A DNA stretch of 64,000 nt from an uncultured Burkholderiales bacterium (GCA_947085425.1 CAMTWK010000026.1:6507-70506), one strand, 5' to 3'. Shown: positions 20,322-39,057, counted from the first letter of the stretch. Program-made: numbers and translations. Notes: generated by a model not told the origin, from the letters alone.

Positions 20322-20350
20322 TTATATGTCCAAAAAAAACTGCAAAAACG

Positions 20351-21746: not shown

Positions 21747-21758
21747 GTTAATCCAGTC

Positions 21759-22466: not shown

Positions 22467-23098
22467 CGCGTTATCTCCTGCATCACCAGTTCTTTGACCC
22501 GGCCTTGCAACGGCAGGGCCAAATGTGTGGCGATGACAGCGATACCGCCGCGCGTCAAATGGGCATCGACCGTTTGCAGCAGCAAAGCCACGCCGGCATC
22601 ATCAAGCGCGTTGGTCGGCTCATCGAGTAGCCACACCCTGCGGTCACTAAGTAACAGTCTGGCCATGCCGATGCGGCGCTTTTGCCCCTGTGACAATTTA
22701 CGGCCGATCACCTGTCTGCGGCCCAGCAAGCCGACCTGATTTAACGTTTCCAGCCGTACCGCAAGTGTGGTGTTGATGGTATCCAGCGCCAATTGATCGG
22801 CCAGATTTTCCTCGGCGCTGAGTTCGTCCTTTAACGCATTGGCATGGCCGACGTACAACACCGCCGCACGATGCAGCGGCGACAACATGGCCAATTTTTG
22901 GTCGTTGAGATAAACCTCCCCCCCGTCCGACGCGGCCAATCCGGCCAACAGCCGCAACAAACTGGTTTTACCCACGCCATTGGGACCGCGCAGAATCAAC
23001 GCCTCGCCGGGCAGCACCTCAAACGACAAGTCGGCAAATAAAAAACGTTCGCCGCGCTTAAGCGTGAGCGCAGCCGCGCGCAGCCGGGCGGCTGTCAC
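22463..23098 (-). CDS. ccmA: Cytochrome c biogenesis ABC ATPase CcmA
   Basis: 211 aa with Walker A GPNGVGKTS, signature LSQGQKRR and Walker B VWLLDEP. The GTG start overlaps the ccmI TAG by 1 nt. Confidence 0.9.
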   Translation of the reverse strand: MTAARLRAAALTLKRGERFLFADLSFEVLPGEALILRGPNGVGKTSLLRLLAGLAASDGGEVYLNDQKLAMLSPLHRAAVLYVGHANALKDELSAEENLADQLALDTINTTLAVRLETLNQVGLLGRRQVIGRKLSQGQKRRIGMARLLLSDRRVWLLDEPTNALDDAGVALLLQTVDAHLTRGGIAVIATHLALPLQGRVKELVMQEITR

Positions 23099-24486: not shown

Positions 24487-24838
24487 AAGTTCAGGCCGAG
24501 AAAGAAATAGACTGACATTATAGCCAGCCACACTCTGTCAGGTTGAAATTTGCTGTCGGTCACCACATCGGCTTTTGTAACCGCCATGATTTGGCTGGTC
24601 GAAATTGCAAAATAATGACGCTTAACTTCAAATACCGCCATTTTTGGATAAACTAATCACGGCGCATGATTTACAAATTATAAAATTACGCCTCTGCTTC
24701 TTCGTATACAGATCCGGCCATTCAACTTTTTAAAAATCGTTCGTGCCGCTTGGAGCATCCGATCGGCTCTGCCAAGGATAGGCAATACAGTCAGCGTATG
24801 GTTTGTATGGTTTGCGCAGGTTGTGCCAAAAAAAACAA

Positions 24839-25678
24839 ATGCCCCATCAGACAGTTCTGGAATACCGGCACTACCGTTATTTAAAAATTGCGCTGCTGGT
24901 CATCGTCACCTCGATCGCCGCGTACGTGTTTCAAGACGCGCCGGTTGGTCGATACGGCGGTACGCCGGTGGGATATGCGTTGGGCATCGCCGCTGCCGCC
25001 GTCGTTTTTTGGCTGATGTGGTTCGGCGTGCGCAAACGTCAATACACCGGGTCCAAAACAACTTTACAAGGCTGGTTATCCGCCCACGTTTATTTGGGTG
25101 CGGCGCTGATTATTATCACCACCTTGCACGCTGCGTTTCAGGTGGGTTGGAATATTCATACGCTGGCGTATTTGTTGTTATTGATCGTTATCGCTTCCGG
25201 TTTTTTTGGCGTCTATGCCTACCTGCGATTTCCAACCATGCAGACCAATAACCTCGGTGATGAAACCCTCAACGCGGTGTTATTACGCATAGGTGACCTC
25301 GACAAAGAAGCGCAGCGGCTGGTCATGACCCTGCCCGACAAATTTAATCAAGCCGTACAGCAAAGTGTGCAGTACACACTTATCGGTGGCAGCGTACGCA
25401 ACCAATTACGACTCAAACATCCCGATTGCCCGACCAACAAAGCCATCCCCATTCTGGAAGACCAAACCAACAAAGCGGAATTGAACATCGAGCAGGCGCA
25501 GACCTTGCACGCGCTTTATAGCGTGATGTTACGCAAACAAAAAGCGGTCGTGCGCGCCCGCCGCGACATTCGCTTCCGGGCGATGATGCAAGTCTGGCTG
25601 TACGTGCATGTGCCGCTGTCATTTTGTTTATTGGCGGCGTTGATTGCGCACATCATCTCTGTGTTTTTTTACTGGTAA
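24839..25678 (+). CDS. Five-TM membrane protein with two H-x13-H pairs (putative di-haem b-type transmembrane electron carrier)
   Basis: Lies in ORF 24803..25678, with ATG 24839 (MPHQTVLEY). TM3 is SAHVYLGAALIIITTLHA (His83/His97) and TM5 is YVHVPLSFCLLAALIAHI (His257/His271). Each pair is spaced by exactly 13 residues, as in ferric-reductase/YedZ-type bis-haem helices. Confidence 0.6.
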   Translation: MPHQTVLEYRHYRYLKIALLVIVTSIAAYVFQDAPVGRYGGTPVGYALGIAAAAVVFWLMWFGVRKRQYTGSKTTLQGWLSAHVYLGAALIIITTLHAAFQVGWNIHTLAYLLLLIVIASGFFGVYAYLRFPTMQTNNLGDETLNAVLLRIGDLDKEAQRLVMTLPDKFNQAVQQSVQYTLIGGSVRNQLRLKHPDCPTNKAIPILEDQTNKAELNIEQAQTLHALYSVMLRKQKAVVRARRDIRFRAMMQVWLYVHVPLSFCLLAALIAHIISVFFYW

Positions 25679-25690
25679 GGCGGTGTTGAC

Positions 25691-27487
25691 GTGAAGCTAC
25701 TTCTCGCCCGTCTCAACCGCAATAAACAAGGACAGGTCGCCCGCACCGATGAAATTCTTGAGTCCGAGTCAATTCCGATCGGGCGCGGCAGTGACTGCAA
25801 ATTACATTTACCCGACCCGCGCGTGGCCTTACATCACGCCGTCATTCAGAAAGGCGCGGCCGACAGAATCAGCATTGACGCCACCCAGGGAGTGATTGCA
25901 ATTGATGGCCGGTCCGAGCGTGCATCGTTGCTCAAAACCGATCTGCTGATCAAACTTGGCCCCTACACTATCATCGTGTTGCCGACGCCGGACGATGTGG
26001 ATGTCGCCATATCGTTGGAATTGACCGAACCTTTGGCCGATCGCACCGAAGCAACCATACAAGCGCAAAAAATCGCCTCTGCCGGACTCGGCTCAACCTG
26101 GCTCTCCAAACGCCGGATGTCCTGGCTGCTTGCGGGCGTGGTTGCCCTGATTTTTATAATCTGGCCGATCTGGCATGTCGTGAATACCGACACCCATATA
26201 GTCGGCGAAAAAAAGCTCGCCAAGATCACCGCAGATGCGTCTTGGGATCCCGGTCCGCTTGATAGTGGTCATACCAGTTTTGGCCGCGATTGCATTCGCT
26301 GCCACCAAACGCCGTTTGTACAGGTCAAAAACGAAACCTGCGAATCCTGCCATAAATCCATCGGCTGGCATTTCGCATTGGAAACGGCGGCGGCCAAACA
26401 ACTGCACACCAACGTGTTTAGTACCGATGGCAGCGAGGGAAGATGTGCAGCTTGTCACCGTGACCACAAAGGCAAAAATGCACTGAAGCGACAAGATTCG
26501 CCCTTGTGCACAGATTGCCACCGCGATCTTAAAACCCGCCATAACGAGGTGGCCTCACCCAATATTGGCGACTTTAAGAAGGATCATCCGGCGTTTAAAT
26601 TGTCGATGCTGGTTGCAGGCAAAACCGGCAAAGACGCGGTCATACGGGTATCACAGAGCGACAAAAACAAACTGGTCGAAAAATCGAATTTGAAATTTCC
26701 GCACGATGTGCATCTGTCCGAAAATAATCGGGACGGTGTGCGCAGCCCGGGTGGCAAACGCGCCATGGAATGCAAAAATTGTCACGTGCCGGATGAAACC
26801 GGCACACGTTTTAAGCCGGTGACGATGAAAGAACATTGTCAGGATTGTCACTCACTTGAATTCGAACCAACGGCAACCAGCCGACAGGTGCCGCACGGCA
26901 AAGTTGATGATGTGATCGCGACCATCAATGAGTTTTATGCGCAAGCGGCCTTCATGGGCAAAACGATTGACCAGCCACCGTCAAAAATTTGGCGGCCGGG
27001 TGATGAGCCACGTACCGGTCCGGATAAAAATATCGCCTGGGTCAATCAAAAAGCCAAGGCCATCACCACCGAGATGATGGAAAAACGGGTTTGTTTTGCC
27101 TGCCATGAAATCACCCGTGTTGGTGTCGGTGCGGCACAATCATGGCATATCGCACCCATTGCCGTGACCAGACACTGGTTGCCGAAGTCCCGTTTCCCAC
27201 ATAGTCAGCACGCGACCTTTAGTTGCAAGAAGTGCCACGACGTTGAAAAGTCGCAAACCAGTGCGGATATTGCCATTCCGGATTTGGCCTCCTGCCAATC
27301 GTGTCACTCCGGCAATGTGCCCGAACAAGATAAAGCTCCCGGCAGCTGTGAAAGTTGTCACGGCTTTCACACCGGCGGCACCCGCGCCGGGGTACCGGTG
27401 GTACTACCCAAATTAAAAGATGTCGCCATTACCACCCGTTCCGGAGTGTTTAAACATCCAACCAGCACCCGTCCAGCGGCCAAATGA
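25691..27487 (+). CDS. FHA-like domain / single TM / periplasmic decahaem c-type cytochrome fusion
   Basis: 598 aa with a GTG start. Residues ~25-100 are FHA-like (IPIGRGSDCKLHLPDPRVALHHAVIQ...IDGRSE...IKLGPYTIIV). KRRM precedes the TM WLLAGVVALIFIIWPIWHVV. There are ten CxxCH: CIRCH, CESCH, CAACH, CTDCH, CKNCH, CQDCH, CFACH, CKKCH, CQSCH, CESCH. Confidence 0.85.
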   Translation: MKLLLARLNRNKQGQVARTDEILESESIPIGRGSDCKLHLPDPRVALHHAVIQKGAADRISIDATQGVIAIDGRSERASLLKTDLLIKLGPYTIIVLPTPDDVDVAISLELTEPLADRTEATIQAQKIASAGLGSTWLSKRRMSWLLAGVVALIFIIWPIWHVVNTDTHIVGEKKLAKITADASWDPGPLDSGHTSFGRDCIRCHQTPFVQVKNETCESCHKSIGWHFALETAAAKQLHTNVFSTDGSEGRCAACHRDHKGKNALKRQDSPLCTDCHRDLKTRHNEVASPNIGDFKKDHPAFKLSMLVAGKTGKDAVIRVSQSDKNKLVEKSNLKFPHDVHLSENNRDGVRSPGGKRAMECKNCHVPDETGTRFKPVTMKEHCQDCHSLEFEPTATSRQVPHGKVDDVIATINEFYAQAAFMGKTIDQPPSKIWRPGDEPRTGPDKNIAWVNQKAKAITTEMMEKRVCFACHEITRVGVGAAQSWHIAPIAVTRHWLPKSRFPHSQHATFSCKKCHDVEKSQTSADIAIPDLASCQSCHSGNVPEQDKAPGSCESCHGFHTGGTRAGVPVVLPKLKDVAITTRSGVFKHPTSTRPAAK

Positions 27488-29397
27488 TGCGCGCTCAAAT
27501 ATTTTCAACCAGTCTCGTCTGCAGTCTGCTATTGATTGCCTGCTCGGGCGGCGGTGGTAATGAGACAACTGTTTGTCAAACAAATTGCACACCACCGGCG
27601 GCACCAGCAGTCGATGCACTGTCCGTGGCCGATGTTGAGCGGGTGATTGCGCAGGCCGCGTCCGAAGCAAACGCACGCAGTCAGCGCGCCACCATTGCCG
27701 TGGTGGATCGGGTTGGTAACGTATTGGCCGTGTACCGCATGAATGGTGCCGCCACCACCTTTCGCATCAGTAGTGGCCGCGGCGTGAATGGCGGCTTGGA
27801 AAACATCGACATTCTGCCGGATGGCCTTGCGGCCATCAGCAAGGCCATTACCGGCGCCTATTTATCCTCCAACGGCAATGCATTTTCATCGCGCACCGCC
27901 AGCCAGATTGTGCAGGAGCACTTTAATCCGCGTGAACTTAATCAACCGAGTGGCCCGTTATACGGTGTGCAGTTTTCGCAATTGCCGTGCTCGGATTTAA
28001 TGCGCCGCGCCAGCGACGGCAGCGTTGGCCCGAAGCGTTCACCATTGGGTCTGTCCGCCGATCCGGGTGGCTTGCCACTCTACAAAAACAATCGGCTGGT
28101 GGGCGGTGTGGGCGTGATTGCCGATGGTGTTTATGGCCTCGATCTCGACGCCACCGACATTGATCAAAGCATCGACGAATTGATCGCGGTGGCCGGTACC
28201 AGCGGATTCGCCGCACCGGATGATATTCGTGGCAATCGCATTACCGCCGATGGTCGCACCTTTCGTTTTGTAGACTCTGAATCGCTGCAGTCCAACCCGG
28301 CACAAGCGCCTGCCCTGGCGGCAATCAGCGGCGCACTTATTTCAGTCGGTGGCTATTTTGACGGCGCGATACGTTTCGGCACCTCGTTTGGCAACGCCGC
28401 ATCGGGCTATCGCGCTGCCACCTCCACTGATCCCAGCCAGTTGGTGGCGCAAAGTGCATTTGTATTGGTGGACGCGGCCAACAACAATCGTTTTGCAGCC
28501 CGCGCCGGTACCGATGGTCTGATCACACTGGCCGAAGCCACCACCATTGCCAGCGAAGCCATCAAAGTCGCCAATCGCACCCGCGCACAAATTCGCCGAC
28601 CACTGAATACCCAAGCACAAGTGACCGTGTCGGTGGTCGATACCAACGGCAACATTCTGGTCATCGCCCGCACACCGGACGCCCCGATCTTTGGCACCGA
28701 TGTGAGTTTGCAAAAAGCCCGCACCGTCATGTTGTTTTCGCATCCAAATGCCGCCAGCGATCTTTCAGCCCTGCCCAACATCACCTACCTGGGTGCCGGC
28801 GGTAACCCGGTCGGTGGTGCGCGTACGTTTGCGCAAACCATTACCGCTACACGATCATTTTTTAACGACCCTGCCATGCTGTCGAACGGGATCGCGTTTT
28901 CCAATCGCGCCATCGGCAGCATCGCCCGCCCCTATTTTCCGGATGGCATTATCGGCACCAGTGCCGGCCCCTTGTCATCATCCATCACCAGTTGGAGCCC
29001 GTTTAATGTCGGCTTACAACTCGACCTGAGTTATAACGCCATCATTGCAGCCGCGTCCAGCCCAACCGGTGACTCAGTTACCGGTGGCTGCACCGGGTTA
29101 TCCAAGGCAAGAAATGGTATCCAGATTTTTGCCGGGGCGGTGCCGATTTATCGGGGCAACCAATTGGTTGGTGCCATAGGTGTTTCCGGTGATGGGGTCG
29201 ATCAGGACGACTTGATTTCCTTTTATGGCCTGCATAACGCGGGCGTGGTTCTCAACACCAACATCGGCAATGCGCCCAAACCAATACGTGCCGATAATTT
29301 AGTCCCGCAGGGACTCGGCACCCGTTTACGTTACGTGCAATGCCCGGTCGCGCCGTTTATCAACGGCAGCGAACAAAACGTTTGTGAGGGTTTGTGA
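27484..29397 (+). CDS. Lipoprotein with two GlcG/DUF336-like (haem-binding/'haem-degrading' fold) domains
   Basis: 637 aa with a lipobox LLLIAC followed by SGGGG. Domain 1 is ATIAVVDRVGNVLAVYRMNGA...GGLPLYKNNRLVGGVGV. Domain 2 is VTVSVVDTNGNILVIARTPDAPIFGTDVSLQKA...GAVPIYRGNQLVGAIGVSGDGVDQDD. The ATG overlaps the upstream stop (ATGA). Confidence 0.7.
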   Translation: MMRAQIFSTSLVCSLLLIACSGGGGNETTVCQTNCTPPAAPAVDALSVADVERVIAQAASEANARSQRATIAVVDRVGNVLAVYRMNGAATTFRISSGRGVNGGLENIDILPDGLAAISKAITGAYLSSNGNAFSSRTASQIVQEHFNPRELNQPSGPLYGVQFSQLPCSDLMRRASDGSVGPKRSPLGLSADPGGLPLYKNNRLVGGVGVIADGVYGLDLDATDIDQSIDELIAVAGTSGFAAPDDIRGNRITADGRTFRFVDSESLQSNPAQAPALAAISGALISVGGYFDGAIRFGTSFGNAASGYRAATSTDPSQLVAQSAFVLVDAANNNRFAARAGTDGLITLAEATTIASEAIKVANRTRAQIRRPLNTQAQVTVSVVDTNGNILVIARTPDAPIFGTDVSLQKARTVMLFSHPNAASDLSALPNITYLGAGGNPVGGARTFAQTITATRSFFNDPAMLSNGIAFSNRAIGSIARPYFPDGIIGTSAGPLSSSITSWSPFNVGLQLDLSYNAIIAAASSPTGDSVTGGCTGLSKARNGIQIFAGAVPIYRGNQLVGAIGVSGDGVDQDDLISFYGLHNAGVVLNTNIGNAPKPIRADNLVPQGLGTRLRYVQCPVAPFINGSEQNVCEGL

Positions 29398-31265
29398 TGC
29401 GGCCGGCTTGGACATTGCCGAATAAGCCGTGCCAGGTGGTGTCCCTACACGCGCTGTTGCTGGTTTGTGCCGGCACTTGTGTCATGGATGTCGCGGCGTT
29501 TTCGCCACCAGCGTTAACGGCGCCACAGCAATTAGCCCCCACACCAGTGGACGAGGCCGAACCAATTGTGCGTTCGCGTGCACCGTCGGACACACGCACA
29601 CCCATGAAATATCCATTACCGCCCATCGACCCGACAAAAGTCGATGCGCCGACTCCTATGGATATTCGTCAATCCATCTCAGTGCCGGACCGCTGGCGCA
29701 TTATGGATTCGCTTGGGTTCAAATTTCCATGGTACGACCCGTATAACCACAACGTCTGGAAGGGTGACAAACCATTTCCACCGTTTGCCAAATTGCACGG
29801 TGGCAACAACAACGACTGGTTCTTGGCGCTGTCGGTGATTTCCGATTCGCTGATCGAGACGCGTCGGCTGCCGCTGCCGGTTGGCGCACAGTCGTCGTTG
29901 CGACCGGACGCGAACAATGTGTTTGGCCGTGGCAAACAAACGGTTTTTGTCGAGACCGTCATCCTGTCAGCGGCAGTGATCAAGGGAAACACCACCTTTC
30001 GCCCGCCCGACTACGAATTCCGTTTTGTGCCGGCCTTTCAAATCAACCATGCCCGCATCGGGGAGGTGCGCGGGTTAAAAATCGATCCGCGCCTTGGGAA
30101 GAGTCGCACCGACCGCCATTTTGCAGTGCAGGAATTATTCGGCGATGTGCATTTGCGCAACGTCTCCGACCATTACGATTTTGACTCGCTGCGGGTGGGC
30201 ATTCAGCCGTTCATTTCCGATTTCCGTGGTTTTGTTTTCCAAGATGTGCCGTTCGGCGTGCGCCTGTTTGGCAATCGCGACAACAATTTTTGGCAGTACA
30301 ACGTTGGTTATTTCCGGCGCATGGAAAAAGACACCAATAGCGGCCTCAATGACTTCAGCCAAAAAATGCGCCGCGATCATTTGTTTGTCGCCAATGCCTA
30401 TCACCAGGATTTTCCGGTCATCGGCCATACCACGCAGGCAACCATCATTCACAACGTCAACCGTGAATCAGCGGCGGATTATTACGATCGCAACGGCTTT
30501 TTGATCCGTCCGGCGGTGATTGGTGACGCACGACCGCGCAACTACAACGTGACTTATGTGGGGTTGAGCGGCGACGGGCACATCGATCGATGGAATCTGA
30601 CCACCTCGGTGTACGGCGCGTTCGGCACCGATCAGCGCCATCCGCTGGCGCAGAAAAAGCAAACCATTCGCGCCGGTTTCGCCGCCGCCGAACTTTCCCG
30701 CGACTTCAGCTGGCTGCGGGTGCGCGGCAATGCGCTGATTGCCAGCGGCGACAAAAATCCGTTTGACGGCAAGGCGACCGGCTTTGATGCCATTTTCGAA
30801 AACCCGCAGTTTGCCGGTGCCGACACCAGTTTTTTTATTCGCCAGGCGATTCCCCTACTCGGCGGCGGTGGCGTGGCCTTATCACAACGTAACGGTGTGT
30901 TGCCGTCGCTGCGCTCCTCCAAGGATCAAGGCCAATCGAATTTTGTCAATCCCGGCCTAACTTTGATTGGTATGGGCGCGGACGCGGACCTCACACCACG
31001 TATTCGACTGATTGCCAATATTTCCAAGCTCAATTTTATAAACACCTCGTCACTTTCGGTGTTGCGCAATCAACACGTCACGTCAAAAAATCTCGGAGTT
31101 GATATTTCGGCAGGTGTGCAAATCCGACCGGTCATGAGCCAGAACATCGTGCTCAACATTTCCGGCGCGGCGCTGCTTCCCGGCCGCGGACTCAAACAGT
31201 TGTACGATGAAGACAAACGTGGGCCGCAATATTCCGTGTTATTTAACTTGATCCTGACCTATTGA
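29394..31265 (+). CDS. Putative outer-membrane beta-barrel protein (no haem motifs)
   Basis: 623 aa with a signal-like N-terminus. Alternating hydrophobic patterns are frequent, and the C-terminus YSVLFNLILTY ends in an aromatic residue, as in OMP beta-signals. The start overlaps the upstream stop (GTGA; ATG 29397 is the alternative). Confidence 0.5.
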   Translation: MMRPAWTLPNKPCQVVSLHALLLVCAGTCVMDVAAFSPPALTAPQQLAPTPVDEAEPIVRSRAPSDTRTPMKYPLPPIDPTKVDAPTPMDIRQSISVPDRWRIMDSLGFKFPWYDPYNHNVWKGDKPFPPFAKLHGGNNNDWFLALSVISDSLIETRRLPLPVGAQSSLRPDANNVFGRGKQTVFVETVILSAAVIKGNTTFRPPDYEFRFVPAFQINHARIGEVRGLKIDPRLGKSRTDRHFAVQELFGDVHLRNVSDHYDFDSLRVGIQPFISDFRGFVFQDVPFGVRLFGNRDNNFWQYNVGYFRRMEKDTNSGLNDFSQKMRRDHLFVANAYHQDFPVIGHTTQATIIHNVNRESAADYYDRNGFLIRPAVIGDARPRNYNVTYVGLSGDGHIDRWNLTTSVYGAFGTDQRHPLAQKKQTIRAGFAAAELSRDFSWLRVRGNALIASGDKNPFDGKATGFDAIFENPQFAGADTSFFIRQAIPLLGGGGVALSQRNGVLPSLRSSKDQGQSNFVNPGLTLIGMGADADLTPRIRLIANISKLNFINTSSLSVLRNQHVTSKNLGVDISAGVQIRPVMSQNIVLNISGAALLPGRGLKQLYDEDKRGPQYSVLFNLILTY

Positions 31266-31266
31266 A

Positions 31267-34200
31267 ATGAAACAAAACTCGTTTATGGGTAAGCCTTTTC
31301 AAGCAAAAATGTTCGTGAACGCGCTGCTGTGCTTGAGTTTGCTCGGCGCCGCTGTTGACACCACTGCCAGTGGCGGCGAAAAGCCGGTGGCGCGCAGCTA
31401 CGCGGTGACGCCGGCTGCGCCGGCGCGGCAATCGGTCATGGACGAATCACAAAAGTCATTTGGCTGTGTGTCGTGTCATACCACCACCGATCGCCATACC
31501 ATGCACGCCAATCCCGGTGTGGTGATTGGTTGCACCGATTGTCACGGCGGTGACGCCAAAGTGGTCAAGCCTGCCAATGTGGTTCGCACCGGTCAAGGGG
31601 AAAAACAATACGCAGAGTTGATGGCCAAGGCGCATATCCTGCCGCGTTTTCCCGCTGCCTGGAATACCCCGTCCAGCTCCAACCCGGAGTCAACCTACAC
31701 ACTGCTCAATCGTGAAGCGCGTGAGTTTGTGCGATTTATCAACCCCGGTGATTTACGTGTCGCCCGTGAAGCCTGCGGCGCCTGCCATCTGGAAATTATT
31801 CAGGCGGTCGAACGCAGCCTCATGTCAACTTCGGCGATGTTATGGGGCGGCGCATCGTATAACAACGGCATTCTTCCCTATAAGCGTTACATCCTCGGCG
31901 AAGCCTATACCGCCAATGGTGTGGGTGCGTTACTAAAGAATCCGGTGCCGGTCACCCCGCACATGACCGCGATGGGCATTCTGCCGTCACTCGCACCCTT
32001 ACCCGCCTGGGAAACGATTCCACCGGGTGATGTGTTCCGGGTGTTCGAGCGTGGCGGCCGGGTGATCAACACACAATTCCCCGAAGTCGGATTACCCAAC
32101 GTCAGCGGCGCGTTGCAAAAGCTGGATGAACCCGGCCGGCCGGACATCAAACAATCCAATCGTGGCCCCGCCACCGGTCAGCGAATCGCCGTACCGGTCA
32201 TCAACATCACCAAAACACGCCTCAACGATCCCCACCTGTGGTTCTTGGGCACCAACGAACAACCGGGTGACTATCGCTCCTCGGGTTGCACCGCCTGCCA
32301 TACCATTTACGCCAACGACCGCGACCCCAAACACAGTGGTCCGTATGCAAAGTTTGGCAACGAAGGCAAGAGTCAGAGCAAAGACCCCACCATCGACAAA
32401 ACCAAATCCGGCAGTCCGCTCAAACACGAGTTCACCCGCGCCATTCCCTCGTCGCAGTGTATGGTTTGCCATATGCACCAGCCCAACATATTCGTGAATT
32501 CGTTTTATGGCACCACCATGTGGGACTACGAAGCCGATGCGCCACAAATGTGGCCGAAAAAACAAAAGTACCCGACCGCCAAAGAATCGTTTGAGATTTT
32601 AAAACGCAATCCTGAGGAAGCGGCCACTCGCGGCCTGTGGGGCGACCGCGATTTCCTCAAACGCATCTGGGAAAACAACGACAAAAAGAAAGACACCCAG
32701 TTCGCCGATTACCACGGACACGGCTGGAACTTTCGGTATGTGTTCAAGCGTGATCGCAAAGGCACACTGCTCGATAAAAACAATGCGCCGGTGGCCGATA
32801 CCGATCCAAAAAAATTCGACAAGGCGGTACACCTGACCTCGATTCACCTCGACGTTGGCATGCATTGTGTGGATTGCCACTTCTCGCAGGACGTGCACGG
32901 CAACGGCCATATTTATGGCGAGGTGGCGGCGGCGATCGAAATTGATTGTATCGACTGCCACGGCACCGCCGACAAATTGCCAACACTGTTTACCTCCGGC
33001 CCGGCGGCCTCGCCGCAAGGTCGCGATTTACAACTGATGCGCACGCCGGATGGCCGCAAACGATTTGAGTGGATCAACGGTGACCTGTTTCAACGTTCGA
33101 GCCTCGATCCGAAACTCGAATGGAAAATGACCCTGGTAAAAAATAGTGTGACGCCTGGCAATGCCAAGTACAACGAAAAGGCGGCGCGCGCAAAATTAAT
33201 GCACAGCGGTGCATCGGGACGCGATGGGAATTGGGGGCCGGGTAGTACACCAACCCAATCGGCAGCAAACGATTACGCCCACAGCAACGAAAAAATGACT
33301 TGTTACACCTGCCATCTTTCCTGGACCACCTCGTGTGCGGGTTGCCATTTGCCGATTCAGGCCAATGCCAAAACCGATAAACAACATTACGAAGGGGGCG
33401 AATCACGCAACTACGCCACCTACAACCCGCAAGTGGCACGCGACGATATGTTTCAGCTGGGTCGCCACGGCCCGGTCAAAGGCAGCCGTATTGCACCGGT
33501 GCGCTCCAGCTCGGCGTTGGTCCTGTCGTCGATGAATGCCAATCGTGAGCGTATTTATATCCAACAGCCGCCGATTGCCGCAAGTGGCTTTTCCTCACAG
33601 GCGTTCGCACCACACTACCCACACACCGAACGCAAAACCGAAACCAAAACTTGTAGCGACTGCCACGCCGCACGCGACGGCGACAACAACGCCATCATGT
33701 CGCAGCTGTTGTTACACGGTACCAACTACGTAAACTTTGTCGGCTTTAATGCATGGGTGGGCTCCGGCAAACACGTTGAAGCCGTACAAGTCACCGAATG
33801 GGACGAACCGCAGGCGGTGATTGGTAGTTATTTACACAAATACGCCTATCCGGATTGGTTTCAGAATCATCAAAAAGCCGGAAAAAAACTGCAACTGCAT
33901 CATTCACAAAGCACCGGTGGTCAGGCCGGCTGTGTGCAATTGCGCGGCGAATATTTGTTCGTCGCGGAAGGTGCGGGGGGCTTTCGGGTCTATGACGTCG
34001 CCTCGATTGCCAACAAGGGCATCTCGCAACGCATTATCTCGGCGCCGTTTTCACCGTTGGGACAAAACACCAACGTACCATCCAAAAATGCCACTTGTAT
34101 GGCTCTACCCACCAATCAAGCCATTGCACCGGAGCGCAACCAAGGCGACTTGATGCGCACCACCAATCAAGAGCAGGCGTTTCATCCGATTTACCACTAC

Positions 34201-35109
34201 GCATTTGTGGTCGATGCGGAAGAGGGCTTGATTGTGGTGAACGTGGATACGCTGGCGGATGGTGAGCCGCGCAATAATTTCCTGAAACGCGCCGCAACCT
34301 GGAACGAAGGCAATGTGCTCAAAGGTGCACGCCACATCGTATTGGGTGGGTATTACGCCTACGTGGCAACCGACAGTGGTCTGGTGGTATTAAATTTGAA
34401 CGATCCGCTTAAACCGAAGGTGGCGGCGAGTCTGCCTCTCGACAATATTCGAGCCTCTGCGTTGCAATTTCGTTATCTGTTTGTGACCACCGCCAAAGGC
34501 TTGGAAATCATCGACATCACCGACCCGAACAAACCCGCCGTCAAGGCCGGTGTACCGCTCGCTGATGCACGCCGCGTCTATGTGGCACGCACCTATGCCT
34601 ATGTGGCGGCCGGGCGTGATGGCTTGGTGATTATCGATGTCGAAAAACCAGAACAGCCGCGCCTATACACAAGCTTTACCTCTGGTGACGGCATCAATGA
34701 CAGTCACGACGTGATTGTTGGCTCGACCAACGCTTCGTTGTTTGCTTATATCGCCGACGGCAAGAATGGCCTGAAGGTGCTGCAACTCACTTCACCGGAT
34801 TCACAACCCAAGTTTTACGGTTTCTCACCCGAACCCAAGCCCGAGCTGATTGCCTGGCGTAAAACCGATTCACCGGCGCTGACCCTGGCAAAAGGGCTGG
34901 ATCGGGATCGGGGTGTCGATGAAACCGGTGGACAGATTGCCGTATTTGGACGAATTGGTTCACGGCCGTTTAATCGCGGCGAAATGGATAAGTTTTACCT
35001 GACACCGGAAGGTAAATTGTGGACCGTGACCGACGCCATCGAGACTGGAAAATTTGTACCGCTATCCGCGATAGTGGCCGCACCAACGGCGAGCGGAGGA
35101 GCACGGTAA
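31267..35109 (+). CDS. Secreted 1280-aa decahaem c-type cytochrome with a C-terminal LVIVD-repeat beta-propeller region
   Basis: The signal peptide is MFVNALLCLSLLGAAVDTTA. There are ten CxxCH: CVSCH, CTDCH, CGACH, CTACH, CMVCH, CVDCH, CIDCH, CYTCH, CAGCH, CSDCH. The C-terminal ~400 aa carry repeated GLxVxxxxDPxxP units: GLIVVNVDTLADGEP, GLVVLNLNDPLKP, GLEIIDITDPNKP, GLVIIDVEKPEQP, GLKVLQLTSPDSQP. Confidence 0.85.
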   Translation: MKQNSFMGKPFQAKMFVNALLCLSLLGAAVDTTASGGEKPVARSYAVTPAAPARQSVMDESQKSFGCVSCHTTTDRHTMHANPGVVIGCTDCHGGDAKVVKPANVVRTGQGEKQYAELMAKAHILPRFPAAWNTPSSSNPESTYTLLNREAREFVRFINPGDLRVAREACGACHLEIIQAVERSLMSTSAMLWGGASYNNGILPYKRYILGEAYTANGVGALLKNPVPVTPHMTAMGILPSLAPLPAWETIPPGDVFRVFERGGRVINTQFPEVGLPNVSGALQKLDEPGRPDIKQSNRGPATGQRIAVPVINITKTRLNDPHLWFLGTNEQPGDYRSSGCTACHTIYANDRDPKHSGPYAKFGNEGKSQSKDPTIDKTKSGSPLKHEFTRAIPSSQCMVCHMHQPNIFVNSFYGTTMWDYEADAPQMWPKKQKYPTAKESFEILKRNPEEAATRGLWGDRDFLKRIWENNDKKKDTQFADYHGHGWNFRYVFKRDRKGTLLDKNNAPVADTDPKKFDKAVHLTSIHLDVGMHCVDCHFSQDVHGNGHIYGEVAAAIEIDCIDCHGTADKLPTLFTSGPAASPQGRDLQLMRTPDGRKRFEWINGDLFQRSSLDPKLEWKMTLVKNSVTPGNAKYNEKAARAKLMHSGASGRDGNWGPGSTPTQSAANDYAHSNEKMTCYTCHLSWTTSCAGCHLPIQANAKTDKQHYEGGESRNYATYNPQVARDDMFQLGRHGPVKGSRIAPVRSSSALVLSSMNANRERIYIQQPPIAASGFSSQAFAPHYPHTERKTETKTCSDCHAARDGDNNAIMSQLLLHGTNYVNFVGFNAWVGSGKHVEAVQVTEWDEPQAVIGSYLHKYAYPDWFQNHQKAGKKLQLHHSQSTGGQAGCVQLRGEYLFVAEGAGGFRVYDVASIANKGISQRIISAPFSPLGQNTNVPSKNATCMALPTNQAIAPERNQGDLMRTTNQEQAFHPIYHYAFVVDAEEGLIVVNVDTLADGEPRNNFLKRAATWNEGNVLKGARHIVLGGYYAYVATDSGLVVLNLNDPLKPKVAASLPLDNIRASALQFRYLFVTTAKGLEIIDITDPNKPAVKAGVPLADARRVYVARTYAYVAAGRDGLVIIDVEKPEQPRLYTSFTSGDGINDSHDVIVGSTNASLFAYIADGKNGLKVLQLTSPDSQPKFYGFSPEPKPELIAWRKTDSPALTLAKGLDRDRGVDETGGQIAVFGRIGSRPFNRGEMDKFYLTPEGKLWTVTDAIETGKFVPLSAIVAAPTASGGAR

Positions 35110-36503
35110 TGAATCTGACCCAAAATTTTTCCCGTCAATGGCTGAATGGTTGTGTGGCCATCATGACCATTACTGCCATCGGCTGCGCCATGTTGCTGCC
35201 GTTGCACGCCGCTGCCGCCACCACCGCGGTGACAAACACATCCTCACCGCTGCTGCCGTATCAGTCGCCACACAAAACAGAAGGCGCAGTGACCTGCGCC
35301 TCGTCGCTTTGTCATGGCGCAATTACCAGCTGGAAAGACTCCAACGTTTTACAAAATGAGTACATCACCTGGAGCCGGCTCGACAAACACGCCCGCGCCT
35401 ACAACGTCTTGCTCAATGATCAATCAAAACTGATCGCAAAAAATCTCGGTCTGACGGAACCGGCGCATCAGGCAAAAATTTGTCTCGATTGCCACGCCCA
35501 CAATATTCCCGCCGCACGACATGGCGAACGATTTACCTTACAGGACAACATCACCTGTGAAGCTTGCCACGGTCCGGCCGAAAAGTGGTTGCGTCCACAC
35601 GTTGAACCCAACGCCAGCCATGCAAAAAATATTTCCTTGGGCCTGTACCCGACCGACGATCCACAGGCGCGCGCGAAATTATGTTTATCCTGCCACTTCG
35701 GCAACAAAGACAAACTGGTCACCCATCGCATCATGGGTGCCGGCCATCCACGCATGAGTTTTGAGTTGGAAAACTTTACCGCGTTGGCACCACGCCACTT
35801 TACCGTCGACAAAGACTACAGCCAACGCAAACGCGTCTGGGATGGCCTGAAAGTCTGGGCGATCGGCCAGGCATTGGCCGTCAGTGCCACCCTCGATATT
35901 CTCAACGACGACAAACTCGGTCGCGATGGTTTGTTCCCGGAATTGGTGCTGTTTGATTGCCACGCCTGCCACCGGCCGATGTCGGAAAACCGCCTGCAGA
36001 CCACCACCCCACTCGGCACCCGTGCCACGCCGGGTTTGGTGCGTTTAAACGACGCCAATATGTTGATGCTGCGGGTGATTGCGCGCGCACTCGATCCGGC
36101 ATTGGGTGAGAAGGTATCTGCTCATACCGTTAAGTTGCACCGCGCAATTGCCGGCGACGGTGACACACGCCAAGCAGCGACCCATTTGCAATCGTTGGCG
36201 GAAAACGTCGTCAATCTGATTGAAGCGAAAAAAATTGACGGTCCATTCATGACCTCGATCGCGCTGGGTTTGGTGGATGACGGCATTAAAGGTCTGTATC
36301 GCGACTACAGCTCCGCAGAACAAGCTGCGTTGGCGATTTCATCGGTGGGGCAATTCATGGCCAAACATGATGTGATGAAGTCACCAACCGCCTTTAATCG
36401 CGAATGGCAGAAACTCAACGCAACACTCAAACACGATGAAAAATTCAAACCGGAAGAGTTTGTTTCCGGACTCAGGGCGTTACGGCCCACCTTGGTTAAG
36501 TGA
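35109..36503 (+). CDS. Periplasmic multihaem c-type cytochrome (4 CxxCH + 1 CxxxxCH)
   Basis: Lies in ORF 35019..36503. ATG 35109 overlaps the upstream TAA (TAATG). The signal peptide is IMTITAIGCAMLLPLHAAAA. Haem motifs are CASSLCH, CLDCH, CEACH, CLSCH and CHACH. Confidence 0.8.
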   Translation: MNLTQNFSRQWLNGCVAIMTITAIGCAMLLPLHAAAATTAVTNTSSPLLPYQSPHKTEGAVTCASSLCHGAITSWKDSNVLQNEYITWSRLDKHARAYNVLLNDQSKLIAKNLGLTEPAHQAKICLDCHAHNIPAARHGERFTLQDNITCEACHGPAEKWLRPHVEPNASHAKNISLGLYPTDDPQARAKLCLSCHFGNKDKLVTHRIMGAGHPRMSFELENFTALAPRHFTVDKDYSQRKRVWDGLKVWAIGQALAVSATLDILNDDKLGRDGLFPELVLFDCHACHRPMSENRLQTTTPLGTRATPGLVRLNDANMLMLRVIARALDPALGEKVSAHTVKLHRAIAGDGDTRQAATHLQSLAENVVNLIEAKKIDGPFMTSIALGLVDDGIKGLYRDYSSAEQAALAISSVGQFMAKHDVMKSPTAFNREWQKLNATLKHDEKFKPEEFVSGLRALRPTLVK

Positions 36504-36515
36504 GGCACACAAACC

Positions 36516-38924
36516 ATGACCATAGAACGATTTGAAATTGCCATTCTCGGCTCCGGCCCTGCCGGATTATCCGCCGCCGGCCATGCTGCGGAATTAAAGG
36601 TCTCGCATATTTTGCTGGAAGCCGAAAGACAACCGGCCAGCACAATTTTTAAGTATCAAAAAGGCAAACACGTCATGGCGGAACCAGCTGTGTTGCCACT
36701 GCGCAGCCCGATGAGCTTTTCCGCCGGCACCCGCGAAAATATTTTGGGCGCATGGGACAACGAGCTCAAAAAACTCGGCGTCAATATTCGTTATCAGGCC
36801 GAGGTCAAAACCATCACCGGCGAAAAAGGCGCGTTTGTCATCACCCTCACCAACGGCAGCAAGATTGAGGCCGGCACGGTGGTGTTGTCGATTGGTGTAC
36901 AGGGTAATTTGCGTAAACTCGGCGCGCCCGGCGAAGACCTGATGGAAGTGCAGTATCAATTGAGCGACCCGGCAGAATTCAACGACGAAACCATTTTGGT
37001 GGTGGGCGCGGGTGACGCGGCGATTGAAAATGCGCTGGCCTTGGCCAAACAAAACCGCGTCATTATGATCAACCGCAACGATGAATTCACACGTTGCAAA
37101 GACGGCAACTTGTCGGCCGTGCTGGATGCTATCTCCAACAACATCCTCGAATGCCGCTTCGGCACCAAGATCGATCGGGTCGAATCGACCAACGGCGAAG
37201 GTGACACTCCGATTCGTTTTATCGCCAATACCCCGCAGGGTGTGGAAACCATCAATTGCCATCGGGTGATTGCCCGCCTGGGTGCGACCCCACCACGTAA
37301 ATTGGTGGAAAGTTTTGGCATCACCTTCCCCAACAATGATCCTTCGTCGGTGCCGCAATTGTCGGCGCAATACGAATCAAACGTGCCCGGCATTTATATT
37401 ATTGGTGCCTTGGGCGGTTACCCGCTGATCAAACAGGCGATGAACCAAGGTTACGAGGTCATTGAATACGCCCTCGGCCGCAACATCGAACCGGCCGACG
37501 AACCGCTATTGCGCGCCAAATTTTCGACCTATCGTGCGGCCAAGAGTGTCAGCGAGGGTCTGGATCGTATCCGCGAAAATGTGCCGCTGCTGTCGGCATT
37601 GACCACCTTGCAACTGCGCGAATTTTTGTTGGACAGCGAAGTGCACACCCCGGCGTTGGGGGCCACCATCTTTGCCAAAAACGATTACACCAATTCTTTC
37701 TTTTCGATTGTCGAGGGCTCGGCGACCGTTGCCATCAAGGGTGCCGACGGCAAAGACGCCACGGTGGTTTTGAGCAAGGGGCAATTTTTTGGCGAAATGG
37801 GTTTGATTTCCGGACGCCGCCGCACCGCCACTATTCTTGCCGGCGACGATTGTGTATTGATCGAAACACCACGCCGTTCGATGTTGAAATTGCTCGCCTC
37901 GGTTGAAGCCGTGCGCAAAACGCTTGATCAGGTGTCACTGAAACGGGCGGTGCGCCAATATTTGCAAGCGCAAATTGCCGAAGAAGAAGTCGACTTTTTG
38001 GTCGAAGGTGCGGTCATCAAAAAATACGCGGCCAATGAAACTGTCTTTAACGAAGGTGACAAAGCCGACGGCCTGTACATGATCCGCCGCGGCTCGGTGA
38101 TGGTGTCACGCGCGATCTCCGGCAAAGAGGTGGTGATGTCGTACGTGTCGGCCGGAAACTACGTGGGTGAAATGGCGCTGATGTCGGATGCGCCCCGCTC
38201 CGCCACGGTGCGTGCGGCGGTACCCACCGAATGTGTGATGTTGGAGGCGCAACGGTTTGTCGACGTGGTCGGACGCAATAAAGCCATGCGTGGTGGTATG
38301 GATGCAAAACTGATGCAACGTATGTCGGCCAACCAGGCAATGGAATCAAACTCCGACTCGGGCAACCTGATTTCATTTTTAATGAAACAGGGGCTGGGCG
38401 AAGCCACTGACGTATTACTCATTGACGAGTCCTTGTGTATTCGCTGCAACAACTGCGAAAAAGCCTGCGCCGAATCCCACGACGGCACCTCGCGACTCGA
38501 TCGCGAAGCCGGTCCTACCTACGCACAAATTCATGTGCCAACCTCGTGCCGACATTGTGAACATCCACACTGCATGAAAGATTGCCCTCCCGACGCGATT
38601 CATCGTTCACAAAACGGTGAGGTGTTTATCAACGACGCGTGTATCGGTTGCGGCAATTGTGAAAAAAATTGCCCTTACGGTGTGATCCAATTGGCGCCGG
38701 CCATTCCCCCGGTCAATAAACCATCCGTACTGTCCTGGTTATTGTTTGGTTTAGGTGATGAACCGGGCATGTCCAGCCAGAAGGTCGACAAGAAAGCACC
38801 GAAAAAAGCCGTTAAGTGTGACATGTGCAAAGACCTGAAAGGCGGACCGGCATGTGTGCGCTCCTGCCCAACGGGTGCGGCGTTGCGTGTGTCACCCGAG
38901 CAATTTTTGGATTACACCCGCTAG
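36516..38924 (+). CDS. Cytoplasmic fusion: FAD/NAD(P)-binding oxidoreductase + two cyclic-nucleotide-binding domains + four-Cys-cluster ferredoxin domain
   Basis: 802 aa with dinucleotide folds IAILGSGPAGLSAAG and ILVVGAGDAAIENA. The cNMP motifs are FFGEMGLISGRRRTATILA and YVGEMALMSDAPRSATVRA. The Cys clusters are CIRCNNCEKAC, CRHCEHPHCMKDCP, CIGCGNCEKNCP and CDMCKDLKGGPACVRSCP. No signal peptide or TM was seen. Confidence 0.85.
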   Translation: MTIERFEIAILGSGPAGLSAAGHAAELKVSHILLEAERQPASTIFKYQKGKHVMAEPAVLPLRSPMSFSAGTRENILGAWDNELKKLGVNIRYQAEVKTITGEKGAFVITLTNGSKIEAGTVVLSIGVQGNLRKLGAPGEDLMEVQYQLSDPAEFNDETILVVGAGDAAIENALALAKQNRVIMINRNDEFTRCKDGNLSAVLDAISNNILECRFGTKIDRVESTNGEGDTPIRFIANTPQGVETINCHRVIARLGATPPRKLVESFGITFPNNDPSSVPQLSAQYESNVPGIYIIGALGGYPLIKQAMNQGYEVIEYALGRNIEPADEPLLRAKFSTYRAAKSVSEGLDRIRENVPLLSALTTLQLREFLLDSEVHTPALGATIFAKNDYTNSFFSIVEGSATVAIKGADGKDATVVLSKGQFFGEMGLISGRRRTATILAGDDCVLIETPRRSMLKLLASVEAVRKTLDQVSLKRAVRQYLQAQIAEEEVDFLVEGAVIKKYAANETVFNEGDKADGLYMIRRGSVMVSRAISGKEVVMSYVSAGNYVGEMALMSDAPRSATVRAAVPTECVMLEAQRFVDVVGRNKAMRGGMDAKLMQRMSANQAMESNSDSGNLISFLMKQGLGEATDVLLIDESLCIRCNNCEKACAESHDGTSRLDREAGPTYAQIHVPTSCRHCEHPHCMKDCPPDAIHRSQNGEVFINDACIGCGNCEKNCPYGVIQLAPAIPPVNKPSVLSWLLFGLGDEPGMSSQKVDKKAPKKAVKCDMCKDLKGGPACVRSCPTGAALRVSPEQFLDYTR

Positions 38925-39057
38925 GAGTCCGCGCGGACCCCTGGCTTGCGAGGCACTTCGCCTCTTTGGTTTTGGCGGAGGGCGTGGGTGCAGCGTTCCG
39001 CGTGGTTCGGCGTGGTGTAAGCAACACCCCGCAAAATGTCGGCAGCGGCGGCCTTGA

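Follow-up and report, generated by a model that had tools for sequence, protein, structure and literature searches.

Seven coupled genes and their products

Seven genes concern us here, which lie together in a 64,000-nucleotide stretch of DNA from an uncultured Burkholderiales bacterium (GCA_947085425.1, CAMTWK010000026.1:6507-70506). I will call the whole of that stretch the window, and all positions within it are counted from its first letter. A reading of the sequence alone had proposed that window positions 24839-38924 hold a translationally coupled operon for an undescribed electron conduit across the cell envelope. A scan of the window for open reading frames (ORFs) finds all seven on the plus strand, with the coordinates and junctions of that reading, and the same seven genes were called by an independent gene finder on two public contigs with identical DNA. 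They are labeled g1 to g7 in 5' to 3' order. A gap of 12 nt separates g1 from g2, g2 overlaps g3 at ATGA (27484-27487), g3 overlaps g4 at GTGA (29394-29397), 1 nt lies between g4 and g5, g5 and g6 meet in TAATG (35107-35111), and 12 nt again separate g6 from g7. The public gene call places the start of g4 at an alternative ATG (29397), in which case the junction with g3 is TGATG and the overlap remains.

The genes are best considered as two groups, an inner module (g1, g2, and g7) and an outer module (g3 through g6). The product of g1 (24839..25678, 279 amino acids, aa), as judged by its reading frame, hydropathy, and motifs, is an inner-membrane protein and a candidate di-haem b carrier of electrons across the membrane. 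Five hydrophobic transmembrane (TM) segments and two pairs of histidines spaced as H-x13-H had been picked out from the sequence, and both hydropathy and conservation bear this out. The motif W79-x3-H83-x13-H97 lies in TM3, SGFFG (beginning at S120) in TM4, and W253-x3-H257-x13-H271 in TM5, and the tryptophans and histidines of these motifs, both H-x13-H pairs included, are 100% conserved in 51 orthologues. An insert of about 115 aa between TM4 and TM5 would lie in the cytoplasm by the positive-inside rule. Similarity to the Pfam family Ni_hydr_CYTB (PF01292) is below threshold (23 bits against a cut-off of 30.1, E 7.8e-5), and the ferric-reductase TM domain (PF01794) gives no match in the Pfam search at E <= 0.1. 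Comparison of the g1 profile by hhalign with MsrQ, YodB, FdnI, and HyaC of E. coli finds no similarity, the probabilities being 1.1% for MsrQ, where a single-sequence template limits sensitivity, and at most 1.7% for the other three.

The product of g2 (25691..27487, 598 aa) consists of a cytoplasmic FHA-like head (residues 1 to about 130), a TM helix predicted by hydropathy (142-166), and a periplasmic decahaem c domain. Its ten CXXCH motifs and ten further histidines are all invariant in 43 orthologues, which suggests haems of the bis-His type found in electron wires. Pfam recognizes Cytochrome_C7, c3_2, and Paired_CXXCH in the protein and, right at the threshold, FHA (cut-off 20.7; 20.6 bits with the full-length protein as query, 22.5 with the head by itself). 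Within the head G31-R32 and H49 are conserved, but the canonical Ser-Arg that contacts phosphothreonine reads Ala-Leu.

The third member of the inner module, g7 (36516..38924, 802 aa), encodes a protein with no signal peptide, a cytoplasmic fusion of a flavoprotein resembling thioredoxin reductase (TrxR), two domains that bind cyclic nucleotides (cNMP), and a ferredoxin domain like that of HycB and HydN. Searches of Pfam and NCBIfam reproduce the fusion that had been read from the sequence, finding Pyr_redox_2/3, two cNMP_binding domains, and families of the Fer4 group, with PF13247 at E 1.2e-9. The 16 cysteines for four [4Fe-4S] clusters are 100% conserved among orthologues, the GxGxxG motif for FAD and the GxGxxA motif for NAD(P)H are conserved, and the phosphate-binding cassettes (G-E...R) of both cNMP domains are intact and conserved as well. 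The flavodomain is not a thioredoxin reductase or disulphide reductase, since a scan of residues 1-640 finds no CxxC; the protein scores 67 bits against TIGR01292, whose cut-off is 343. The nearest solved relatives in the PDB are TrxR-like ferredoxin-NADP+ reductases, tandem cNMP domains of the PKA/PKG type, and the HycB/HydN ferredoxins. I liken the flavodomain, in fold only, to the TrxR-like ferredoxin-NADP+ reductases and the YpdA type.

Turning to the outer module, g3 (27484..29397, 637 aa) encodes a lipoprotein (lipobox LLLIAC-SGGGG, with Ser at +2) made of two tandem, insert-bearing domains of the HbpS/GlcG (DUF336) family, much as the sequence-only reading had it. PF03928 matches with 89 bits, each half matches the family separately, and the halves align to each other (internal BLASTP, E 3e-9), so the protein contains an internal duplication of the DUF336 domain. 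Its relatives by sequence in the PDB are EfgA/GlcG, the C-terminal domain of PduO, and NahX. Its orthologues share no invariant histidine; C169, C536, C620, C634, and Y217 are invariant.

The g4 product (29394..31265, 622 or 623 aa, depending on the start) matches nothing in Pfam or NCBIfam. An AlphaFold2 (AF2) model, built from an alignment of 64 sequences and with a mean pLDDT of 59, has 18 long strands, and a Foldseek search of the PDB with this moderate-confidence model puts AlgE first (3rbh, E 7.4e-12, probability 1.00, TM-score to the target 0.51). Next come 18-strand channels of the OccD/OccK/OprD group (E 7e-12 to 1e-7 over AlgE and these channels) and general porins, and MtrB is absent from the top 50 matches. 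The C-terminus (...NLILTY) reads as a fitting beta-signal of an outer-membrane protein. A protein that had been described as outer-membrane-like thus emerges as a beta-barrel of the AlgE/OccD kind. Two stretches are near-invariant among 64 homologues and of very low confidence in the model: an N-terminal periplasmic stretch at about residues 75-130 and an insert of 65 aa at residues 454-518. One of them includes ...NPQFAGADTSFFIRQAIPLLGGGG..., and they are candidates for plug or docking elements. A count of motifs finds no haem site in g4.

The largest protein, encoded by g5 (31267..35109, 1280 aa), joins a decahaem c domain (residues 60 to 810, approximately) to a C-terminal LVIVD beta-propeller (about 825-1210), the latter confirmed by the Pfam profile at 70-80 bits. 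Its window sequence has a Sec signal that lacks a lipobox. Relatives as distant as 41% identity still have all ten haem motifs and ten distal histidines. AF2 models the propeller with pLDDT above 90 and the haem region below 50, and Foldseek compares the propeller to generic ones, such as those of AztD, a BtuG-like protein, and BamB. A catalytic metal site in the propeller was considered and rejected: C889, C944, and H1023 are invariant in close orthologues but not kept at 41-53% identity. To judge from its sequence, g5 is probably a wire with a binding module and not an obvious enzyme. Among the known conduit families the single named match is a partial one of g5 to Geobacter ExtM (74 bits, where the cut-off is 800), and the ext cluster is made up differently, with Rieske/cytochrome b, rhodanese, and selenoprotein. 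The protein varies in size. One relative (P0250, 1648 aa) has an N-terminal extension with 18 extra CXXCH motifs, 28 in all, and the g5 ORF in locus L032 is also extended, to 1586 aa measured from stop to stop.

Finally, g6 (35109..36503, 464 aa) encodes a periplasmic pentahaem c protein, a Cytochrome_C554 by Pfam, whose C-terminal half is free of haem motifs. Four CXXCH and one CX4CH (CASSLCH in the window) are found in all 68 orthologues. Together with the ten CXXCH motifs each of g2 and g5, this gives the total of 25 c-haem motifs counted in the sequence-only reading, 24 of them CXXCH and one the invariant CX4CH, and all 25 are 100% conserved in 43-80 orthologues. Searches of the PDB by sequence or profile find no match for g1, g2, g4, g5, or g6. 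The idea that the operon supplies a redox or scaffold part to every compartment of the envelope is supported by the domains just described.

Conservation and the exchange of input modules

The genes are common. Searches with g5 and g4 gave at least 7998 and at least 7939 matches, respectively, at E <= 0.001 among the best 8000 candidates. Among the 120 matches listed, identities ran from 70 to 100% for g5 and from 69 to 100% for g4, and the name given by every source was "hypothetical". A scan with one genome per species finds relatives of g5 in at least 589 species.

To see the company that the genes keep, the products were located by tblastn in the best 80 species loci, 39 of which have full flanks. 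All seven genes are together in 35 of those 39, spread over Beta-, Gamma-, and Alphaproteobacteria and Acidobacteriota. The seven genes are one co-conserved system. The order 1-2-3-4-5-6-7, with g7 at the end of the operon, holds in 28 loci; in seven loci from Gamma- and Alphaproteobacteria g7 stands immediately 5' of g1, with an inverted g6 in some cases. Median identities to the window are 70% for g5, 61% for g7, 59% for g4, 54% for g3, 51.5% for g6, 45.5% for g1, and 35% for g2. The haem counts (10 in g2, 10 in g5, and 4+1 in g6) are the same in every proteobacterial and acidobacterial orthologue of the synteny loci.

The hosts are a varied lot: in Burkholderiales, Usitatibacter, Casimicrobiaceae, Limnobacter, and Comamonadaceae; in Gammaproteobacteria, Silanimonas, Arenimonas, Fontimonas, Panacagrimonas, Parahaliea, Halioglobus, Steroidobacter, and Methylobacter; and beyond these, Rhodospirillaceae/Kiloniellales and Vicinamibacteria. 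Most carriers are aerobic heterotrophs (Limnobacter, Silanimonas, Parahaliea, Fontimonas, Usitatibacter, and Vicinamibacteria, for example), and several are cultured.

The division into two modules is not simply a convenience. Two loci (L070 and L075) have the four outer genes with no g1, g2, or g7 within 10 kb, and Gallionellaceae, as described below, have the inner trio alone. The two arrangements together define two modules. A Methylobacter metagenome-assembled genome (MAG) shows a different rearrangement (L065:7391-9604 and 13797-14537), in which g3 is missing, the barrel gene is longer (737 aa), and a gene for a heavy-metal-associated (HMA_2) protein lies 3' of g5.

More distant relatives were sought with a Planctomycetes relative of g5, 46% identical, as query. 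The g5 family turns up in Planctomycetota, Rokubacteria, Riflebacteria, Wallbacteria, KSB1, and further Acidobacteriota, and the core list of parts recurs in Rokubacteria, Riflebacteria, and Wallbacteria and, partly, in Planctomycetes. These neighborhoods contain a barrel, a g5-like protein, a C554-type cytochrome, a counterpart of g1 (called "IMP" in the literature, with W-x3-H-x13-H and SGxxG), and a TM-anchored cytochrome with ten haem motifs. An HbpS-like protein is present in L087 (Rokubacteria), L088 (Wallbacteria), and L090 (a further lineage). The g1 counterpart is complete in L087 and L090 and is cut by the end of the locus, hence unchecked, in L089 (Riflebacteria); the g1 motifs are retained in the relatives from Rokubacteria, Wallbacteria, and L090. 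In these other phyla the two large cytochromes have 9-10 haem motifs and the C554-type one 4-5. Relatives of g2 in particular have ten (ten CXXCH, or nine plus one CX3-4CH) in shorter proteins, which leaves no room for the FHA head. The N-terminal sequences of the g5 relatives in L086 and L087 suggest that in other phyla these are lipoproteins.

What changes most tellingly is the counterpart of g7. In Rokubacteria, Riflebacteria, and L090 the TrxR-like domain is replaced by a NuoE/F-like protein (2Fe-2S_thioredx + Complex1_51K + NADH_4Fe-4S), accompanied by a protein with Fer2_4, Fer4, cNMP_binding, and Fer4 domains (L087:3778-7818, L089:18721-23399, and L090:16128-20023). Residues 419-798 of g7 in the window align at 34% identity with the Fer/cNMP protein of Rokubacteria. 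Wallbacteria (L088:16463-17998) have only the part with cNMP and Fer4 domains and no flavodomain, and a gene for ETF-QO is nearby. A cNMP domain is present in every variant. Two unrelated flavoproteins that oxidize NAD(P)H occupy the same position, and this points to a link with pyridine nucleotides. Insofar as sequences can speak to the matter, this exchange is the strongest available evidence for a tie to the pyridine-nucleotide pool, and it suggests that control by cNMP is integral to the system.

Known systems and a model of electron flow

Porin-cytochrome clusters (PCCs) are a known kind, and the present cluster has already been sighted. He et al. 2017 (Front Microbiol 8:1584) defined the IMP of two predicted clusters, PCC3 and PCC4, by SGxxG and two W-x3-H-x13-H motifs and drew a comparison to cytochrome b and to the ferric-reductase domain with its two haems. 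PCC4, a prediction only, was reported from Alpha- and Gammaproteobacteria and Planctomycetes. The resemblance to it is considerable. The g1 protein bears the IMP signature, with five TM segments, SGxxG on TM4, and W-x3-H-x13-H on TM3 and TM5. PCC4 has a Fer4_11 (pfam13247) gene beside IMP, and here g7 answers to it, directly upstream of g1 in the gamma/alpha loci. Both combine a porin with more than one multihaem cytochrome exported by Sec and with further redox genes, in a domain order that varies between subgroups. On the other hand, the PCC4 cytochromes have 4, 5, and 10 haems, in contrast to 10, 10, and 4+1 here (and never 4/5/10 in the relatives from other phyla). An HbpS-like lipoprotein, a propeller, a cNMP domain, and an FHA head are all missing from the account of He et al., who modeled flow inward, to quinone. 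The comparison is one of descriptions, and with its different haem counts PCC4 is no more than a possible equivalent of this cluster.

The "Group 1" PCC of the karst metagenomes from Sterkfontein ghost rock and groundwater (FEMS Microbiol Ecol, June 2026, PMC13264449) has a decahaem gene of 4-5 kbp adjoining a porin of about 20 strands, with a gene for ferredoxin-NADP+ reductase nearby in 7 of 11 cases. It is almost certainly the same cluster, judged by description and not by sequences. There it is an entry in a catalogue, with no dissection of the 5-TM, cNMP, FHA, and HbpS parts and no comparative synteny or mechanism. Among the 36 MAGs of that study that carry a PCC of any group, 21 are Gammaproteobacteria (in the GTDB sense) or Acidobacteriota, and three have carbon fixation.

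The inner module has been noticed three times in iron oxidizers, with no function assigned to it. A trio of the g2+g1+g7 type appears for Gallionella in Supplementary Table 6 of He et al. 2017, Hoover 2023 lists a "Forkhead-associated protein, 10 haems" in Gallionellaceae, and a 2026 preprint on Ferrigenium straubiae describes an FHA-multihaem + 5-TM + [4Fe-4S] trio transcribed under all tested conditions. The authors of the preprint suggested quinone reduction, and the TM protein was not recognized as a carrier of haem b. The Gallionellaceae proteins match g2, g1, and g7 in size (544-556, 308, and 796-805 aa) and in having five TM segments and two H-x13-H pairs, but the trio stands alone, with no barrel, propeller-decahaem, pentahaem, or HbpS-like protein, and has nine haems in the cited cases. 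With the signature of g1 already on record, the trio noted in 2017, 2023, and 2026, and the Group 1 listing besides, the term "undescribed" is too strong, even though the distinction from MtrCAB/MtoAB/PioAB, Cyc2, and PCC3 that accompanied it stands.

That distinction can now be made part by part. MtrCAB, MtoAB, and PioAB also encode multihaem c wires, decahaem units among them, together with a barrel. However, the g4 barrel is of the 18-strand AlgE/Occ type, as opposed to the 26 strands of MtrB/PioB (about 26-28 in the family). The MtrA/DmsE model TIGR03508 touches only g6, with 26.7 bits against a cut-off of 192.2, and does not match g2 or g5. The nearest approach to MtrC/OmcA is the 23.4 bits of g5 on PF22113 (cut-off 30), and g5 has no lipobox. 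In place of input through CymA there is an NAD(P)H flavoprotein and a candidate cytochrome b. None of the seven products has an above-threshold match in Pfam or NCBIfam to MtrA/DmsE, MtrB/PioB, MtrC/OmcA, NapC/CymA, or NrfD, as had been surmised for the quinol modules. Cyc2, OmbB-OmaB-OmcB, Uet, and PCC3 were each considered as the identity of the cluster and each differs from it. The same is true of other published clusters: Tenderiales uet, the PCC3-like cluster of Burkholderiales from the Rifle bioanode, those of MHCscan, peat multihaem cytochromes, and those of Woeseiaceae, Methylobacter (MtoAB-like), and humic lakes.

Individual parts have analogues elsewhere. In the eukaryotic NADPH oxidases and ferric reductases and in bacterial MsrQ, as proposed here, electrons from a cytoplasmic NAD(P)H/flavin site move outward through a stack of two b-haems, whose ligands are pairs of His at a spacing of 13 residues on TM3 and TM5, and post-translational regulation is a common theme. 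The differences are that g1 shows no sequence or profile similarity to them, and that the flavoprotein here is of the TrxR type instead of the ferredoxin-NADP+ reductase type, forms a separate subunit, and has four Fe-S clusters interposed. A four-cluster ferredoxin subunit pairs with a di-haem b membrane subunit in FdnH/FdnI and the hydrogenase cytochrome b, but g7 is cytoplasmic and has no Tat signal, and g1 is weakly similar to PF01292 and not to FdnI/HyaC. CbcL of Geobacter links a b-type cytochrome with a c domain of many haems. AlgE and the OccD/OccK (OprD) channels share the fold of g4, with 18 antiparallel strands, at only 9-12% identity and with no Pfam Alginate_exp match in g4. The g4 context is one of cytochromes, not of polysaccharide synthesis, and g4 has in addition an N-terminal region of about 125 aa and the invariant 65-aa insert. 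What is new here, then, is the seven-part anatomy, the conservation over several phyla, the AlgE-type barrel, the exchange of input modules, the association with kinases, phosphatases, and cyclases, and the recognition of g1 as a di-haem candidate of the PCC3/4 type paired with a cNMP-gated Fe-S flavoprotein.

I propose that g1 to g7 constitute a two-module chain that would export electrons from NAD(P)H across the envelope, independently of quinones and gated by cyclic nucleotides, a reading that I hold tentatively, at a little short of even. In the inner module, g7 would oxidize NAD(P)H at its TrxR-type FAD domain, a step gated by the two cNMP-binding domains, and pass the electrons along its four [4Fe-4S] clusters. 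It would bind g1 from the cytoplasmic side, and the stacked pair of b-haems in g1, with the H-x13-H histidines of TM3 and TM5 as ligands, would carry the electrons across the inner membrane to g2. In the outer module, the soluble pentahaem g6 would relay them to g5, whose place would be at the outer membrane, in company with the barrel g4, like AlgE in fold, and the outer-membrane lipoprotein g3. The final acceptor might pass in or out through the g4 channel or be touched at the cell surface. Three arrangements are conceivable: g4 could be a channel for a soluble acceptor or shuttle reduced by g5 in the periplasm, g5 could reach the surface by another route, or there could be contact through g4 at the level of loops. 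Candidate acceptors are Fe(III) or Mn(III,IV), humic or quinone-like compounds, and O2. What the sequences show directly is the gene content and its co-conservation, the cofactor motifs, the compartments as told by signals and TM features, the barrel fold, and the exchange of the input module; the order of the carriers, the direction, the docking, the acceptor, and the location of g5 I infer from the nature of the parts.

The chain is supported by the invariance of its cofactor sites: the 25 c-haem motifs, the 10+10 distal histidines of g2 and g5, which would make bis-His wires with no evident open site, the four histidines of g1, and the 16 cysteines and the glycine motifs of g7. The prevalence of aerobic heterotrophs among the carriers and the few carbon-fixing MAGs among those with PCCs fit export better than lithotrophic uptake. 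The membrane potential would favor the outward flow of electrons, and since the NAD(P)H proton would stay inside, proton-motive force would be dissipated rather than built. With no energy conserved in this direction, the system would be a regulated reductase or a redox valve, not a respiratory coupling site.

Several considerations weigh against export. There is no detectable homology between g1 and the known di-haem b families (MsrQ, YodB, FdnI, and HyaC among them), and its binding of haem b is predicted from the motif. The propeller of g5 keeps no Cys, His, or Met across the wide family, which leaves nothing to point to as a catalytic site or an acceptor. TrxR-like ferredoxin-NADP+ reductases and NuoEF modules are reversible, and so these domains do not fix the direction. 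A barrel of 18 strands that has no haem motif is unable to conduct electrons on its own. The AF2 models are only modestly good, as seen in the pLDDT values for g4 and the haem domain of g5. For the related PCC4, He et al. 2017 proposed the opposite direction, from a donor to quinone.

The barrel bears also on the claim of a conduit through the whole envelope. An 18-strand barrel is too narrow to hold a decahaem as MtrB holds MtrA. There are parts for each compartment, as had been claimed, but the passage through the outer membrane was overstated. An alternative view, one I consider rather unlikely, is that the inner module works as just described but g5 is the terminal reductase within the periplasm, and no electron crosses the outer membrane. 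In that case g4 would be a substrate-specific channel, like OccD/OprD or AlgE, and g3 would bind the substrate or a tetrapyrrole. This view takes g4 at face value, since it resembles 18-strand substrate channels and polymer exporters, not MtrB, and lacks a haem motif. It is in keeping also with the ligands of DUF336 relatives (EfgA, the PduO C-terminal domain, and HbpS), which are small molecules or tetrapyrroles, and with the plain Sec signal of the window g5. Surface-exposed cytochromes usually evolve fast. In contrast, g5 is the most conserved of the set, and identities such as those of g5 and g4 (70% and 59%) are more usual for enzymes and the proteins they work with than for exposed ones. 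Yet all ten haems of g5 appear to be bis-His, and with no conserved metal ligands in the propeller either, no catalytic site is visible in a protein that would have to be the reductase. Moreover, LVIVD repeats are typical of cell-surface proteins, according to the Pfam description, g5 relatives elsewhere are lipoproteins, like outer-membrane cytochromes, and beta-propeller proteins accompany extracellular cytochromes in Desulfovibrio ferrophilus.

A second alternative, which I judge unlikely, runs the chain backwards, following the PCC4 model: Fe(II) or Mn(II) would be oxidized outside the cell or in the periplasm, electrons would flow from g5 through g6 and g2 to g1, g1 would be a quinone-reducing cytochrome b, and g7 a side branch or sink toward NAD(P)+. 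Bis-His multihaem wires conduct both ways and would permit it. The signature of g1 is that of the protein given this role by He et al., the inner trio is common in iron-oxidizing Gallionellaceae, and PCC4 was found in the genomes of drinking-water filters and in Hyphomicrobium, linked to Mn oxidation (He et al. 2017). Against this, most carriers are heterotrophs not known to oxidize metals, and only three of the 36 karst MAGs with a PCC (all groups) fix carbon. Electrons that cross to the negative side of the membrane and then climb to NAD(P)+ (about -320 mV) would have to be driven by energy, and none of the subunits seems able to provide it. Finally, the partner in the cytoplasm is in every case a protein of pyridine-nucleotide or Fe-S type and never a subunit with a quinone site, such as NrfD or NapC.

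That there is no single machine at all, only a ccm-linked set of cytochromes, a porin, and an unrelated flavoprotein that happen to be neighbors, is very improbable: the modules do occur apart (L070, L075, and the Gallionellaceae trio) and the ccm genes for haem maturation adjoin the operon in just 21 of 80 species loci, but the idea is contradicted by the synteny of the seven genes in 35 of 39 loci from at least two phyla, by junctions that overlap or span 1-12 nt, and by the same list of parts in Rokubacteria, Riflebacteria, and Wallbacteria despite rearrangement.

To return to export from NAD(P)H, a good deal would follow if that reading is right. Extracellular or envelope electron transfer would not be confined to specialists that respire metals. 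A strongly conserved 25-haem system, fed directly by NAD(P)H and gated by second messengers, would exist in ordinary aerobic heterotrophs, over at least 589 species-level genomes, and in several poorly known phyla. Bypassing the quinone pool, it would act as a redox valve or as an assimilatory or defensive reductase, not as a respiratory pathway. One may go further and see in the system a bacterial, two-membrane counterpart of NADPH oxidase and ferric reductase, an NAD(P)H:extracellular-acceptor oxidoreductase that does without quinones and answers to cyclic nucleotides and, in certain lineages, perhaps also to Ser/Thr phosphorylation through kinase, PP2C, and FHA genes. Aerobic heterotrophs living in soil, freshwater, and the sea would then drive electrons out of the cell, and the system would be a genetic candidate for the widespread extracellular production of superoxide, which has no assigned enzyme, and for the reductive mobilization of Fe and Mn by heterotrophs. 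This larger idea is doubtful. There is now a set of genes with which to ask how heterotrophs reduce extracellular iron, manganese, humics, and oxygen, and cultured, testable hosts (Limnobacter, Silanimonas, Parahaliea) in which to ask it. The IMP of PCC3/PCC4 and the orphan FHA-cytochrome cluster of the iron oxidizers also gain a hypothesis of function, their first, in which a carrier with two b-haems docks to an Fe-S flavoprotein.

Neighboring genes

Genes of regulatory character flank the cluster in some lineages, though none of those described next lies within the window. A gene for a PP2C phosphatase is found 3' of g6 in nine gammaproteobacterial loci (L070, L075, L076, L082, L069, L079, L077, L073, and L072; for example L079:14979-23651). 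Seven of the nine also encode a protein with two canonical FHA domains, and in several there are further genes for a Ser/Thr kinase, a beta-barrel of the autotransporter type, and a caspase(Peptidase_C14)-Sel1 protein. Ser/Thr kinases flank the loci of Planctomycetes (L086) and L090. By analogy to Fha/PpkA/PppA of the type VI secretion system, of which they are reminiscent, these neighbors suggest control by phosphothreonine. In Limnobacter (L026:17669-23788, L028, and L034), and in no other host, a CHASE2 adenylate/guanylate cyclase and a FecR-domain protein are encoded convergently beside g7, along with a 791-aa protein of no known family. Taken together, the regulatory neighbors point to post-translational switching that is specific to lineages.

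The window has neighbors of a different sort. The ccm operon for haem maturation (16969..24531, minus strand; CcmI, A, B, C, E, F, G, and H by Pfam, CcmD not scanned) diverges from g1, as the sequence-only reading had noted, and the region between ccmI and g1 (24532..24838) presumably holds the promoters of both. The adjacency is not general: nearly all loci that have it are betaproteobacterial. When all ORFs of 82 loci were clustered, no further conserved neighbors appeared beyond the seven families and the betaproteobacterial ccm genes, and no conserved motif was found across 11 orthologous regions upstream of g1. Scans by consensus for promoters and terminators gave results at chance level, the number of terminator-type sites across the region included. 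Set aside from these is a terminator-like hairpin with a run of T (38950..38964, plus strand), 26 nt past the stop codon of g7, which probably marks the end of the operon.

Beyond lie genes of various kinds. Directly 3' of ccmH and on the same strand are genes for a CoA_binding_2 protein and an NfeD-like protein (15886-16972, minus strand), and farther in that direction is one for a hybrid sensor kinase of 1021 aa (10578-13643, minus strand) with VUPS (vitamin-uptake-like sensor), PAS, GAF, HisKA, HATPase, and receiver domains. Immediately past the 3' end of the operon is an island of low GC content (40000-46100, 0.39-0.41 compared to about 0.53), containing a gene for a C-5 cytosine DNA methylase (40284-41291), another for a phage-type integrase (42595-43176), and ORFs with no Pfam match. 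The island is probably a mobile element. On its far side is a gene for a Pat-like protein acetyltransferase (46531-49299, plus strand, 922 aa) with CoA-binding, ATP-grasp, and GNAT domains, followed by rpoD (49678-51621, minus strand) and dnaG (51929-53761, minus strand), which mark the window as chromosomal core DNA.

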